In this document: positions 9,158 to 53,105 of the stretch, piece by piece
Layout of the letters: every line of letters starts with the position of its first letter
Numbering within the stretch: the first letter of the stretch is position 1
NCBI GenBank assembly: GCA_014686985.1
Contig: GCA_014686985.1_3627.1
DNA: 64,000 nt
Source: a phage
Direction: 5' to 3' (one strand)
Position numbers and translations under genes: made by a program
The notes under the pieces: model-generated
What the model saw: only the letters and a program-made list of their open reading frames with translations
Told to the model about the DNA's origin: nothing
Databases searched by the model: none

Positions 9158-9177
9158 TTTCTTAACTGAATTATCAA

Positions 9178-9202
9178 GGGGCTTAAAGGCCCCTTTCTTT
9201 TT
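9178..9202 (+). terminator. rho-independent terminator at the end of the plus-strand early block
   Basis: hairpin GGGGCTTAAAGGCCCC followed by TTTCTTTTT. Confidence 0.6.
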
Positions 9203-11760
9203 GTCTGCTCTTCTCCTACCATAAACGGCCCTACCCGGCAAGTGGAATAATTGACTAGCCATTAATCCCACACACTGTACAAATATACATATAAAATAAC
9301 TATTGCATAATCTTTCACTGTGTGGTAGCAGGGCCATTTTTACCCGTTTTCTCTCCCAAAAGTGCACGTAATGCCGCTATTGCACAAATTTTAACCTGAT
9401 GCACATCTCCAATATCTTGTCAACAACTAAAAATCTTTATAAGTCATACACTTACACAACATAGAAAGCGTGTCCTACGCGAAAAATCGAGTATAACTAT
9501 GGCCGCCAGATCTCAGAATTCACGTACGCACGCCATTCTATAGCCTGCAAAGTATTTATTCCAACCACAGAATAACGGAATAGTCAATACCTGCATAAAA
9601 TAATTATTCGTGTAAACTGCATAACATAAATCAGCTCAGGTGTCAACATTTTTCGTAAACAGTCCGAAATTATCACGATGAGTTATCATAAACAGAGAAA
9701 TCTTTAGTCGTCTAATGTTTACTGTACATTACTATACTGACTGGAATCATTAGATGACTAAGAGAAAGATAAGAAATAATTAATAATGTGATTATTTTAC
9801 CTGTAACAATAAGGCAACTATGCAAACGAATGGCATGGCGCGACGGAGTCGCGACATAATATAAAAGCAGTAACCATCACCCCCGTGATAGTTTGTCTGC
9901 AAACTATTAATCAGATCATAGTTGCCTTGTATTTAGTTAATCATGACATAACAAGCAAGGCAACTATAGATCTTCTAATAGTTGCCCTGCTTTTATATTA
10001 TGTCATAGAAACACCCGAAGGGGTGACCAAAGGCCACCTGGCATAGCCAGCGAAAGATTATTAACTTGCTAATAGTTATCATGCAAACGAATGGCATGGC
10101 TTATCATTTCCATGTAAATAGTTAGCTATGTAAACTATTGGTCATGTAAACCATTAAGCATGTAAACAGTAAGAGCGTGAACAGTAAAGGGAGTGAATAG
10201 TAATAGCGTGAATAGTGACAGCGTAAACAGTCAGGCATGTCAATTATGTCATATTGTGTCACCATTATGTCTAAAGTGTCATATTGTGTCAGACAAGTTT
10301 TTCTCCTCTTTGTCAAGTGCTGCATGAAAAATTTACAAGCTGGTATGGTAGCATTTTTGCGGCCCTGTTTACATTCAGTGATGTATGTATAATCCTTGTT
10401 GTGTGGGCGTTTAGACGTCTAGACGGTTGGAAGTCCACAGGTCAATATCTAATCTATCGGCTGCTAACTATATCCCACACAAATAGTAAGAAATATGATT
10501 GTTATATGCGTAAACAGTAACTCATGTTATCAATCCCTGTATGTATCGCCAGTGGTGCGCATAATGGGTATTATGTTAAATTGCCCGTAATGATAATGGT
10601 TCTCACAATGATAGGTATTCTCATTCCCCCACACAAAATAGATTGCAAATGTTGTGCCACTATGTGAACGGCCTCACCTATTAATTTGCCTCACTGCCTC
10701 GATATTTGAGAATTGTTATAAGAATGAGAATGATTCCCATTTCGTCCGCCTGGCAGCACTCCTGTAGGTCCTGCAAGGACTCTAGCTGAAAGCTAGACCC
10801 TTCGGGCCTCCCTGTAGGTCAGGTCAAAATCGTGGTAGAATTGGGCCTGTTCAGATATTTCTGGCTGACTCTTCAGGTCTGTGTGGGAAAAGCCAACCTC
10901 TCCGGCGGCGGGGAGGGGGTCAATTAAAAAAAAAATTACGTGGTGTATGAAGCGCTCTTCAGGTAAGGCATATATTATGAGATGAAACCCTCTTCAGGTA
11001 ATGATATTTGTGGGTGTGATATTTGCTGGAAAGCCAGATATGACGGGACTCCCGGCGGGGCAGGGGTAGTACAGACAGGGAAAATATGAGAATGTAGTTG
11101 GGGAAATTGATCAGACAGGTAGAGTATGGAATATGTTACAAGTATGTTAAATATGGAGGTTGAATATCTGTAGGGTTTGTGTGTAAAATCAAAGACTTAA
11201 GGGGTGTTGTGGTATTTTCTATAAATAATTCAAGTTTAATAGGCAATATTTGTCTCTATCCGCTTTGTGTGGTAAACAGATTCAGATTAGATTGGTTTAC
11301 AAGTGTATACATAATATACAAATTAAAGATACAAGAAACCCCCCTCCCCCTTCGGCTACCATTCACCTTTTCCTCTGACTGGTACTTAAACACTTATTCA
11401 GACTCTTCAGGTTATCACCCATATATCATATGGCAGTGACTGGTGTCCTCCGGCCCCTCTTTCGTCACCCGTCCGCTTCGCCATGCTAATGCCATAGCCA
11501 ATGGTTCGGTTGTTCACCCTGTTCACTCAGGTGTATCTCCATACCCCTTCAAACCGAAGAGAACAGAAAACCCGAATTACTCGGTAAAAGAAAAGAGAAG
11601 AACTTAATTTTATCAGGATAGGCAAGAATGTCAAGGCATGACTGCTCACTAAACAAGCAAACAGTCATGTGTGGGAGGTAAGTGATTGTGGTGGTAGGAA
11701 ATTTAGTTGAAAGATGTGTTATAGGTGCTTCCAGCACTTTAGCCTGGCAGCTAATTGTGT
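9203..11760. repeat. non-coding repeat-dense region (several families of short direct and inverted repeats)
   Basis: no convincing ORF on either strand; recurring motifs AGGCAACTAT / ATAGTTGCC, CAAACGAATGGCATGGC (x2), TGTCATATTGTGTCA (x2), CATGTAAA and GTGAATAGT series, CTCTTCAGGT (x4), CCTGTAGGTC (x2). Confidence 0.6.
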
Positions 11761-48529: not shown

Positions 48530-48573
48530 TTTGTCAGTCTATCCTGCCACACAAATAACCTGGTGTCAACACT

Positions 48574-48601
48574 TGAAATTAACAAAACAGTTGGGTATAC
48601 T
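48574..48601 (+). promoter_or_regulatory. sigma70-like promoter
   Basis: TTGAAA 48574-48579, 16-nt spacer, TATACT 48596-48601. Confidence 0.5.
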
Positions 48602-48629
48602 ATCGTTGAAATTAAAACGGAGGATTACT

Positions 48630-49047: not shown

Positions 49048-49602
49048 ATGAAATACTTTGTAACAAGCGACACACACTTTCTCCACCAGCGGGTCATGGA
49101 GTTCGATTCCTGTCAAAAACACAGATCTCAGTATGATCACAATCTTGACAGTATGAATGCGGGAATCATCACCAAGTGGAACTCTGTTGTGTCACCTGCA
49201 GACACTGTGTTTCACTTGGGAGATATTGCGTGCACTAATGATAAGAATATCAACAAATTGCTCCCAGATGTTCTAAATATGTTGAACGGACATATTATTC
49301 TTGTTCGTGGTAACCATGACACAAGGACGACTGTCAGAATTATGAAAGAGTTCGGTCATGAGGTTGTAGATTATTACGAGCTTCGCCACAACAAGAATTT
49401 GATCTGTATGAGCCATTACCAGTTTGCAAAGTGGAACAGAAAGCCTCACGGATCAGTCCAACTGTTCGGTCATGCTCACGGAACCACACAGCAGTTGTTT
49501 GGCAGGCAGTTTGATGTCGGTTGGGATGTGTGGGTGAGACTCTTACCATTAGAAGAGGCATACCGTATTGCAATGAGTCTTGCTATTGACAGCGGGGAGT
49601 AA
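49048..49602 (+). CDS. calcineurin-like metallophosphoesterase
   Basis: ATG 49048 after GAGG; motifs SDTHF (DxH), GDIACT (GDxx), GNHD. Confidence 0.7.
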   Translation: MKYFVTSDTHFLHQRVMEFDSCQKHRSQYDHNLDSMNAGIITKWNSVVSPADTVFHLGDIACTNDKNINKLLPDVLNMLNGHIILVRGNHDTRTTVRIMKEFGHEVVDYYELRHNKNLICMSHYQFAKWNRKPHGSVQLFGHAHGTTQQLFGRQFDVGWDVWVRLLPLEEAYRIAMSLAIDSGE

Positions 49603-49649
49603 TCCCTGCTATTTTAAAGAAAATTGCCACACAAGGAGAATCAGGAGAT

Positions 49650-50000
49650 ATGAAAGATGGGGATAAGCTGCTATATCTTAAAGTCCCCCTTGAAATACTG
49701 TCTATGTCAAAAGTTTTGAATGACACAACTGGGGAGGTTGTTGTTCTTGACTTATATGACAAGATCGTATACTGCTACCTGCACAACTGGTATAAGCTTG
49801 GAGGAAATTCACGCTTCACACCCAGCACAAGGAAAATTGCAGCAGATGTTGGGATAAAGAAAACAAAAGCAGCAGCGTGCGTTAAAACTTTAGAATGTGC
49901 AGGAGTGGTTGAAATATCCACACAAGGGAGAGGTAAAAGATGTACATTTTCCAAAGTTTTGCCACCAGAAGAGGTTATTCGAATGTCAACAACTGGTTAG
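49650..50000 (+). CDS. hypothetical DNA-binding protein (winged-helix-like), candidate iteron-binding initiator/regulator
   Basis: helix-turn-helix-like TPSTRKIAADVGIKKTKAAACVKTLECAGVV; immediately upstream of four tandem dyad repeats. Confidence 0.5.
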   Translation: MKDGDKLLYLKVPLEILSMSKVLNDTTGEVVVLDLYDKIVYCYLHNWYKLGGNSRFTPSTRKIAADVGIKKTKAAACVKTLECAGVVEISTQGRGKRCTFSKVLPPEEVIRMSTTG

Positions 50001-50072
50001 ACCAGTAAAAACTTAAATATCTGTACTATAAGGATTCGTATGTTTTATGTTCGCTCTGGAACAGAGGTCAGT

Positions 50073-50158
50073 AACTGTCCGTGATACGGACACTACTGTC
50101 CGTCACGCGGACACATCTGCCCGTAATACGGACACTAACTGTCCGTGATACGGACACA
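50073..50158. repeat. four tandem 21-22-bp iterons, each containing dyad GTCCGT-N3-ACGGAC
   Basis: AACTGTCCGTGATACGGACACT (50073), ACTGTCCGTCACGCGGACACAT (50095), ATCTGCCCGTAATACGGACACT (50117), AACTGTCCGTGATACGGACACA (50137). Confidence 0.8.
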
Positions 50159-50280
50159 TAAAGAATATAACTAAAATAACTAAATAATAAAAATAAAAGA
50201 TCTAGTACTTATGGTACTAAGTACATATACTTAACTTATGTAGAATATACTAGATCCTAAGTACCATGTTTTAAAATTAT
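50159..50280. other. AT-rich region with nested palindromes (candidate DNA unwinding element)
   Basis: very AT-rich tract; inverted repeats GATCTAGTA...TACTAGATC and GTACTTATGGTAC. Confidence 0.5.
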
Positions 50281-50640
50281 TACTTACTATAGGTAGTGTC
50301 GGCCCTTCATTGGCACTCGCCTACGAGGGGCGAGATGCCGGGCCTCCTTGGTGCACACAATAACAGAAGTGCATACATGCAGGTCTGTTAACATGTGTGG
50401 GAGCGAAGCGATAGCGCAGGCCAAAGGCCGAGCACTGATGTGGACCACCGACGAAAGCTTGCCAGCGCCGTAAGGAGTCGGTTGAGAGTCTCCCGCGCGA
50501 GCTTGGATGAAGTTTATGTGTGGAAACTGACAAGAAGGCCCCTAAATCGCTCCACAGCTATATAAACTATACCAGGTAATGCAATCGCACCAGTTTGATA
50601 GAAAAGCTCGTTACAAAGTGATACAGTGAGTTTTTCTATA
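50281..50640 (+). ncRNA. GC-rich structured non-coding island A (candidate ncRNA/structured leader)
   Basis: locally GC-rich versus AT-rich surroundings, many short complementary segments, no plus-strand ORF of 60 aa or more; strand assignment by context only. Confidence 0.3.
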
Positions 50641-50659
50641 ACTTGAAGAGGAGGCAGCT

Positions 50660-51238
50660 ATGGGTTCACGCAAAGATGACCGTGAAAAGATTGCAAAACG
50701 TTATCAGAATGAAGAACAGATGGAGAAAACTTTCAAGTGGAAGCCTGGTTTCCAGCGTAATCATTCTAACGCTCGTGATCGTAAGCATCCGGATAAGTGG
50801 CTAACACCGCCAAATGATGGCATGCAGGTTGGTGATGAGAAGGAGATGTCACCTGGAAAAGATGGCAACTACATTCGCACTAAGGAAGCTGGTCCAAAGG
50901 ATGACAGCTATCTTGTAGATAAGGTTCTTAATGGTATTGATGTAGATGTTGACACTGCACGAAACCTTTTTCTTGGTTGGTATCGTACAGGGTTTTTCGA
51001 CATCAAGGCTATTCGTCGTGTTTGCGATATTAAAAAGTCTGCCTATGATGATGACTCCCTACATCGCACTCTGAGACAATACTCAGAGAGATACGGTCAT
51101 CCAGTTATCACTCTTGACGATATTAACGAAGTGATGTATCATGCAGAGGTTGTTGCAGGTAGATTCGGTGATGCATATCTAGATATCCTTTCTGCAAAGG
51201 ATGAGGTAATGTTAAATAAGATTTACTATGAACGCTGA
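50660..51238 (+). CDS. hypothetical protein (192 aa)
   Basis: ORF track; strong RBS GAAGAGGAGG. Confidence 0.65.
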   Translation: MGSRKDDREKIAKRYQNEEQMEKTFKWKPGFQRNHSNARDRKHPDKWLTPPNDGMQVGDEKEMSPGKDGNYIRTKEAGPKDDSYLVDKVLNGIDVDVDTARNLFLGWYRTGFFDIKAIRRVCDIKKSAYDDDSLHRTLRQYSERYGHPVITLDDINEVMYHAEVVAGRFGDAYLDILSAKDEVMLNKIYYER

Positions 51239-53006: not shown

Positions 53007-53105
53007 GCTAGGTAAGCCCTTTGGCAAGGGCGAGGATTTTTAATCCTGAAAATAGACGAGGTAGTCGTTGAATACATAGGTGGTTCGATTCCATCGCCTA
53101 GCACC
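53007..53105 (+). tRNA. atypical tRNA-like element (99 nt; anticodon arm irregular, about 30-nt variable region)
   Basis: intact acceptor GCTAGGT/GCCTAGC, D-arm GCCC...GGGC and T-arm GGTGG-TTCGATT-CCATC; AGGA-TTTTTAA-TCCT arm would give anticodon UUU (Lys) but with a mismatch and an over-long variable region. Confidence 0.45.

Follow-up and report, generated by a model that had tools for sequence, protein, structure and literature searches.

A candidate iteron-type replication origin next to a small winged-helix gene in rV5-like Vequintavirus phages

Initiation of the RepA_N type is known mainly from plasmids of Firmicutes and from one Vibrio satellite. [quoted passage not shown] The RepA protein of the Vibrio cholerae satellite PLE, whose NTD is the structure 4RO3, binds semi-palindromic direct-repeat iterons that are needed for PLE replication, according to electrophoretic mobility shift assays and deletion analysis (Barth et al. 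2020, PMC7145576). Here we examined a stretch of 64,000 nucleotides of phage DNA (GenBank assembly GCA_014686985.1, contig GCA_014686985.1_3627.1; hereafter the window), in which a small gene corresponding to rV5 gene 79 (product gp79) is followed by an array of repeats and an AT-rich tract. The 2.4 kb around this locus share 97-99.9% identity with more than 110 genomes of Vequintavirus (rV5-like E. coli myophages), several of these near-identical records carrying the label 'Campylobacter phage'. As in iteron origins, phased repeats (4 copies) lie in a non-coding stretch with an initiator-type gene and an AT-rich element adjacent to them. We regard this module as the best candidate so far for the origin, or for an origin, of Vequintavirus phages, and estimate at roughly 55% the probability that it is an iteron-type origin with an initiator reduced to its DNA-binding domain. 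The parts of the module and its borders are as follows.

49586-49615, plus strand: sigma-70-like promoter (TTGACA-18-TATTTT with TG) just 5' of the winged-helix gene, a consensus match only.
49650-50000, plus strand: gene of the 116-aa winged-helix protein (rV5 gp79), a putative iteron-binding initiator, apparently homologous to the origin-binding NTD of PLE RepA (RepA_N-like).
50051-50072, no strand: hypervariable spacer of 22 bp from gene to array, the most variable stretch of the whole gap in an 11-locus alignment.
50073-50158, no strand: four phased repeats (21/21/22 bp), putative iterons, each with a 17-bp dyad TGTCCG-N5-CGGACA.
50159-50297, no strand: AT-rich tract (139 bp, 21% GC), a putative DNA-unwinding element.
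50190-50202, minus strand: GATCTTTTATTTT, which matches the 13-mer consensus of E. coli oriC (GATCTnTTnTTTT) exactly, as no other site in the genome does.
50239-50247, plus strand: TGTAGAATA, a -10-like element and candidate rightward promoter between two GATC-bearing inverted repeats.
50298-50560, plus strand: near-invariant, GC-rich (57%) non-coding element that separates the AT tract from the gene after it.
50660-51238, plus strand: 192-aa gene (phrog_12226), the first after the module, leading into the tRNA, lysis and structural unit.

An initial annotation, made by a model from the letters alone, had described four direct repeats with a periodicity of about 21 bp at 50073-50158, and this was borne out: Tandem Repeats Finder reported 50074-50157 as the top-scoring array of the window (period 21, 4.0 copies, score 110), and a repeat search gave start-to-start spacings of 21, 21 and 22 bp for the four copies. 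The dyads were located at 50076-50092 (TGTCCGTGATACGGACA), 50097-50113 (TGTCCGTCACGCGGACA), 50118-50134 (TGCCCGTAATACGGACA) and 50140-50156, the fourth being identical in sequence to the first, and in each of them 7-bp arms flank GAT, AAT or CAC. The motif GTCCGT-N3-ACGGAC, which the same annotation had assigned to every repeat, with the first and fourth copies alike, was found 5 times in the 64 kb when up to 2 mismatches were allowed, where 0.97 matches would be expected and not one of 100 shuffles gave as many; all but one of these 5 matches were clustered inside the 86 bp of the array. In the sister genome phiWec191 (137,785 bp), TGTCCG-N5-CGGACA with at most 1 mismatch occurs solely at these four sites. 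Two GenBank records annotate the array as an unexplained repeat_region.

We followed the conservation of the array in an alignment of 11 Vequintavirus loci, whose gp79 identities span 86-100%. Almost no change is seen in the outer half-sites (TGYCCG in repeat 3), and the changes that were observed hit the centre of the dyad or the innermost positions of its arms. Because the spacer between gene and array is hypervariable, the repeats beside it appear to be under constraint. Repeat 2 of the Aya-type phages is the fully symmetric TGTCCGC-CAC-GCGGACA, and repeat 3 of JEP1 is back to the consensus. FFH2 has 3 copies, one 22-bp unit having been cleanly deleted, and three units are therefore viable. 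The most divergent gp79 (86% identity) is encoded on a metagenomic contig (L003, Logan contig ERR10140743_199057) that stops within the second repeat, which reads TGTCCGTAATACGGACA.

No duplex in the 64-kb window or in the whole phiWec191 genome is less stable than the tract that follows the array, at any of the three sizes of sliding window (60, 100 and 150 bp) for which nearest-neighbour stability, a thermodynamic proxy for unwinding, was calculated. In phiWec191 the value for the stretch corresponding to 50147-50297 is -1.026 kcal per step; the mean is -1.335 (standard deviation, sd, 0.057), a difference of 5.4 sd. The tract contains ATAACTAAA 9-mer repeats (50167-50196) and GATC sites at 50199 and 50253, both inside inverted repeats; these pair AGATCTAGTA (50198-50207) with TACTAGATC (50248-56), and 50211-21 with 50257-67. 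Thus, the AT-rich palindromic tract of the initial annotation is present and does hold inverted repeats, but their arms are interleaved rather than strictly nested. The -10-like TGTAGAATA lies 87 bp past the array, resembles the late-promoter motif TGGTAaAAtA of rV5 (rV5 Table S4) and recurs in homologous modules; our sigma-70 scan did not report it. A T7-promoter-like string at 50281-50299 was dismissed as a chance match, since it is not conserved in Aya-type phages.

The open reading frame (ORF) of gp79 stops 73 bp ahead of the array. The protein belongs to phrog_12838, 'replication initiation protein' (2.5e-80), in PHROGs, the label from which its RefSeq name of the same wording derives, and it weakly matches the N-termini of three longer initiator families. 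In a search against all PDB sequences, 4RO3 was the sole significant match (E 1.4e-6, residues 12-90), and DUF6945 of Pfam has the 4RO3 sequence at its core (84 bits). An AlphaFold2 model based on a 36-sequence alignment (predicted local distance difference test, pLDDT, 80; predicted template modelling score, pTM, 0.76) consists of a beta-hairpin, three helices and a two-stranded wing, and this H-H-H-beta-beta topology is that of a winged helix, as the initial annotation had supposed for the 116-aa gene just upstream of the repeats; the model obtained from a 5-sequence alignment was unusable (pLDDT 48). The top seven Foldseek matches of the model were 4RO3 and the staphylococcal RepA_N initiators 4PQL, 4PT7 and 5KBJ, the last being a complex with iteron DNA, and these initiators came clearly ahead of the MarR, LexA and CodY regulators. 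Sequence and model together point to gp79 as a protein of the initiator-NTD type (PLE RepA / RepA_N-like), homologous to the origin-binding domain only.

The gp79 family is very small. A word-indexed homologue search returned 5 hits and an exhaustive HMMER search 15 hits (E < 1e-3, 1.84e9 cluster representatives), and the tblastn matches of gp79 were confined to Vequintavirus. Several of the distant relatives (P0009, P0016, P0017, P0019 and L024:883-1164) terminate in PF, NF or TF, and the longer relatives (146-217 aa) have an acidic stretch before the terminus (...DEAPF, ...EENPPF, ...DPDAPF, ...DGENF). Such acidic C-termini recall the C-terminal tip of the single-stranded DNA-binding protein SSB, which docks replication proteins; gp79 has no such tail. 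The locus encoding a 182-aa relative (L026) shows no obvious iteron array. We also considered the 192-aa downstream protein as a detached CTD and obtained no support for it, as no similarity to the longer relatives, PDB or Pfam was found.

Relatives in other genera were reached by synteny, starting from the phosphoesterase gene. An hmmsearch over all ORFs gave one module in Vequintavirus, and the genomes of Mydovirus, Seunavirus and Henunavirus carry two modules each, with a small winged-helix protein, repeats and an AT tract, and with differing specificities. The two family members of KpS8 (Mydovirus) lie at 129.6-130.2 kb (module A, L022:29590-30202) and at 71.5-72.1 kb (module B, L011:1674-2265). 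In module A, gp245 (105 aa; 28.7 bits to DUF6945) is encoded by the first gene of the leftward unit at a divergent junction. Directly adjoining its ribosome-binding site (RBS) is a pair of TGCTCAAnTTGAGCA-type repeats with a spacing of 23 bp, and the AT tract after the repeats contains two 13-mers that carry GATC. The parts of module B, which encodes gp111 (98 aa), stand in the same order as in the window, namely stop codon, repeats, AT tract, GATC palindromes, -10-like TGTATAGT, GC-rich element and next gene. Its repeats are two copies of ACCCCGGACAyNGrTGACC, 23 bp apart, and its DNA is recognisably homologous to that of the window (CGGACA, ATAATAAAGAATA, AAGATCT, GATGTGTGTGGAAG). The B-type modules of three further phages have the following repeats.

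GAP31: repeat SSSSTGACAAAAACG, spacing 23 bp.
Hena1: repeat TGACAAATTTGTCA, spacing 22 bp.
SSE121: repeat TGCAAAATTTGCA, spacing 23 bp.

What homologous modules have in common is thus an AT tract, GATC palindromes and a GC-rich element, whereas the proteins and the dyads (TGCTCAAnTTGAGCA; GGACAC-TG-GTGACC; TGACAAATTTGTCA; TGCAAAATTTGCA) differ, and the recognition helix varies between the aligned family proteins. This joint change of protein and repeat sequence across modules lends indirect support to the predicted binding of the repeats by gp79. The A/T-centred semi-palindromes are clearer in relatives than in the window (TGCAAAATTTGCA, TGACAAATTTGTCA, TGCTCAAtTTGAGCA). In KpS8 (143.8 kb), whichever of the three window sizes is used, the two family genes are 50-65 bp away from the two least stable windows (ranks 1 and 2), a coincidence to which we assign, as a rough estimate, a chance probability of about 1e-5. 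In Hena1 (148.8 kb), windows of 60 and 100 bp give the two modules instability ranks 1 and 2, and windows of 150 bp ranks 2 and 4, with the terminal-repeat region in first place. In phage PHB05 (phi92-like), a divergent junction (L013:607-1015) has an AT-rich tract with AGATCT and shares the 5' untranslated region motif AGCTCGTTACA.AG..ATACAG with the 192-aa gene of the window; no family gene was found in the 7.5 kb examined.

The initial annotation had inferred a replication origin or a multi-operator regulatory hub built like lambda ori. Computation supports that inference, with every part that lends itself to in silico testing coming out favourably: a protein of the initiator-NTD type, a dyad confined to the locus, a genome-wide stability minimum and an architecture kept in several genera.

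If the module is an origin, gp79 would be an early product, expressed from either the P081 promoter or one of its own, and gp79 dimers, formed as in RepA_N NTDs, would occupy the four 17-bp dyads. Because the dyads are two helical turns apart, the dimers would lie on one face of the DNA, where they could form a bent nucleoprotein complex, and the strain would be relieved by melting in the neighbouring AT tract (139 bp), perhaps helped by rightward transcription from the TGTAGAAT element. A phage T7-gp4-like primase-helicase and a PolA-type polymerase, both annotated in rV5 and KpS8, would then load on the opened DNA and start replication, presumably without a dedicated loader, since gp79 has no C-terminal recruitment domain. 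Iterons in plasmids damp transcription, and the same binding of gp79 probably also damps transcription through the array. A wider scheme, which we put forward as speculative and unlikely to hold in full, is that Vequintavirinae carry one or two interchangeable minimal replicator cassettes, each with a RepA_N-like initiator consisting of the DNA-binding domain only, iteron-driven melting of an extreme unwinding element, self-loading of the T7-like primase-helicase, and the GC-rich element as a structured primer transcript or single-strand initiation site; specificity would be swapped between genera and between the A and B types within one genome, allowing two independently controlled origins.

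Several observations weigh against the origin. The best Pfam scores of gp79 stay under the curated cut-offs (DUF6945, 27.1 against 28 bits; HTH_36, 24.5 against 25), and Pfam RepA_N (PF06970) does not match it even at E up to 1. The model comprises the NTD and one short helix, and since the protein has only a DNA-binding domain and the CTD of RepA_N plasmids is essential, gp79 may be an initiator-derived regulator. The AT tract and its surroundings lack DnaA boxes and consensus sites of the integration host factor (IHF); for the DnaA box TTWTNCACA, no match was found in 49900-50700 and the single box with 1 mismatch is inside a gene. A strong promoter region would likewise show AT-rich intergenic DNA and a promoter-like element. 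Position speaks for the origin, as the module lies 1.5 kb from the global minimum of cumulative GC skew and from the divergent transcription junction, and the KpS8 and Hena1 modules are also at or near skew minima, but the direction of transcription confounds GC skew. The replication genes are more than 55 kb distant, a second repeat-rich non-coding region is present at 9158-11540, the position of the array at the head of a long tRNA, lysis and structural unit fits a gate for late transcription, and the A-type modules, with repeats that abut the RBS of the winged-helix gene (KpS8, GAP31, 4MG, pEp_SNUABM_01), have an autoregulation layout.

As the main rival explanation, the repeats could be an operator array without origin function and gp79 a transcription factor descended from the DNA-binding domain of an initiator. 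Cooperative binding to the four dyads would then block read-through from the early promoters or control the promoter in the AT tract, timing the downstream unit, and in A-type modules the winged-helix protein would also repress its own gene. The label that the GenBank submitters gave to the gene, 'putative transcriptional regulator', agrees with this, as do the lack of a replisome-recruiting domain in gp79, the late-promoter-like element past the array, the array heading the late unit in the layouts of both the window and KpS8-A, and the repeats at the RBS in the four A-type modules. Moreover, since gp79 is followed by no intrinsic terminator before the next gene begins, read-through must be limited by some other device. 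The operators-only explanation is nevertheless weakened, and we hold it to be possible but rather unlikely. It leaves unexplained the genome stability minimum beside each module, the KpS8-B and Hena1-B modules do not head the late unit, and the closest structural relatives of gp79 are initiators, with regulators clearly behind. In the window as in KpS8-B, some 85-90 bp separate the array from the -10-like element, a long distance for a repressor or a class I/II activator. Nor do the dyads (50073-50158) coincide with any sigma-70-like promoter, although the scan omits phage-specific promoters and the argument is hence weak.

A small protein that binds repeated sites is a typical feature of cosB and pac regions, and Nu1, the small terminase subunit of lambda, is a winged helix. 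The array could accordingly be a packaging recognition site at which gp79 acts like a small terminase subunit and marks the start for the terminase; these records lack an annotated small terminase subunit, and gp79 is tagged 'structural protein (MS evidence)' in the rV5 genome paper (Tables S3 and S5). The mass spectrometry (MS) evidence consists of two weak non-tryptic peptides (XCorr 1.86 and 2.08, Sp ranks 20 and 79), and we regard these two poor spectra as weak evidence for gp79 as a virion protein. The fold of gp79 is that of initiator NTDs and not of terminase subunits, its 116 aa leave no space for an oligomerisation core, KpS8 and Hena1 carry two modules of differing specificity, and Hena1 has annotated direct terminal repeats elsewhere, at its convergent junction. 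A packaging role is in our judgement very improbable.

Large lytic phages such as T4 mostly use recombination-dependent replication. The module could be another kind of winged-helix-bound site (a hotspot of recombination or replication restart, a genome anchor or an anti-defence decoy), with replication starting elsewhere, either by recombination-dependent initiation or in the larger repeat-rich region at 9158-11540, where the second and third least stable stretches of the genome are found and which would be the natural alternative site of an origin. Nothing positive was found for any of these roles and no family gene adjoins that region. The region lies at a convergent junction and is the positional equivalent of the Hena1 terminal repeats; because the latter, annotated as 519-bp direct repeats, are at the equivalent place, 9158-11540 may be a genome-end or packaging region. 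We consider such another function, with a start elsewhere, quite unlikely, and retain the module beside gp79 as the preferred origin candidate.

This second region is a 2.4-kb ORF-free stretch, shown as a 'non-coding' box in the rV5 paper. Six GCGTAAACAGT-type repeats occur in it (9653-10527), along with two copies of ATGTC..TGTCATATTGTGTCA (10237-10291), a 20-mer present in identical form at 9820 and 10081, and an 18-bp inverted repeat with perfectly matching arms (9853/9987); the region has no Rfam match.

In the given orientation, minus-strand genes span about 11.5-48.5 kb of the window, up to the divergent junction at about 48530-48620. The plus-strand unit that starts there comprises a polynucleotide-kinase-like ATPase, the phosphoesterase, the 116-aa gene and a 660-bp non-coding gap, and continues with the 192-aa gene, the tRNA cluster and the lysis and structural genes. 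Within the tRNA cluster, ARAGORN predicts a 99-nt tRNA-like gene with a four-base anticodon (atcc) at 53007-53105; it is 'tRNA-OTHER' in the annotation of phage nom, and the Rfam tRNA model is silent there at the gathering threshold. The rV5 genome paper, which sought an origin and included skew analysis, found only transcription switches and no origin, so that there is no competing origin assignment, and we found no publication describing a replication origin of rV5-like phages.

The GC-rich element may be a leader RNA, a primer RNA or a single-strand initiation site. Its RNA fold has a z-score of -2.9 on the plus strand, and it is partly kept in the B-type modules of KpS8, GAP31 and SSE121, irrespective of the gene that follows. 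The covariation analysis, with 0 compensatory pairs, was uninformative because the 7 near-identical sequences are too alike. In the gap, no Rfam family passed either the gathering or the E-value threshold (rli43, with 20.7 bits against a cut-off of 100, is noise). An rV5 'gene 78' is annotated at 50395-50565 (56 aa, pI 12) and its ORF is intact in 7 phages; we rejected it as coding and regard it as probably no gene, because substitutions are spread over all three codon positions (28/21/19).

The rV5-like phages count among the E. coli phages that are isolated most often, and therapy cocktails make use of them. The candidate of about 650 bp, with gp79, four defined sites and an unwinding tract, makes the question of their origin directly testable, and a mapped origin would provide an engineering handle for origin-based amplification, replication-defective mutants and reporter constructs. 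If the reading is correct, initiation of the RepA_N type would extend to large lytic phages of Enterobacteria, and, with gp79 as the initiator, it would raise the question of how an initiator acts without a recruitment domain.

Among the known systems, PLE RepA is the closest in sequence. Its iterons are semi-palindromic and A/T-centred, and so are the dyads of the window with their 7-bp arms around GAT, AAT or CAC. PLE RepA has a CTD that gp79 lacks, PLE is a satellite that borrows the replisome of ICP1 whereas the element here is the phage itself, and binding and origin function are proven for PLE RepA and predicted for gp79. The RepA_N plasmids of Firmicutes (pSK41, pTZ2162; 4PQL, 4PT7, 5KBJ), the best Foldseek matches after 4RO3, have a winged-helix NTD dimer of about 120 aa, like the gp79 fold, and four phased boxes with an inverted sub-repeat, like the array of the window. 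Their origin is inside the rep gene, between the NTD and CTD parts, and the array here is outside the gene; the plasmid boxes have a poly-A centre, unlike the dyads of the window.

The likeness to lambda ori that the initial annotation had proposed stood as regards architecture, with four phased dyad iterons followed by an AT-rich unwinding region in both, and failed as regards kinship and position: the closest family is RepA_N / PLE RepA (DUF6945, HTH_36) and not lambda O, and the array is downstream of a gene for a DNA-binding domain only, 3' of the gp79 stop codon, whereas the lambda origin is inside the O gene. The CTD of lambda O recruits P-DnaB, and gp79 has no match to Phage_rep_O (PF04492). 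Lambda is also temperate and dependent on host DnaB, while rV5-like phages encode a gp4-like primase-helicase. Across lambdoid relatives, a change of iteron sequence goes along with a change of the DNA-binding domain, and the AT-rich part is kept; the modules of Vequintavirinae follow this pattern, with a variable protein and phased dyads beside a conserved unwinding tract.

The primary origin of T7 and oriF/oriG of T4 are origins of lytic phages with a promoter-like element in or beside an AT-rich tract, as here, and a T7-type replisome (PolA-type polymerase, gp4-like primase-helicase) is common to T7 and the rV5-like phages. The T7 and T4 origins need no sequence-specific initiator or iterons, and the promoter of the window is a motif match only. 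The architecture of the module is of a known kind, and what is unusual is its combination of an initiator consisting only of a DNA-binding domain, a large lytic phage as its carrier, and cassettes of swapped specificity.

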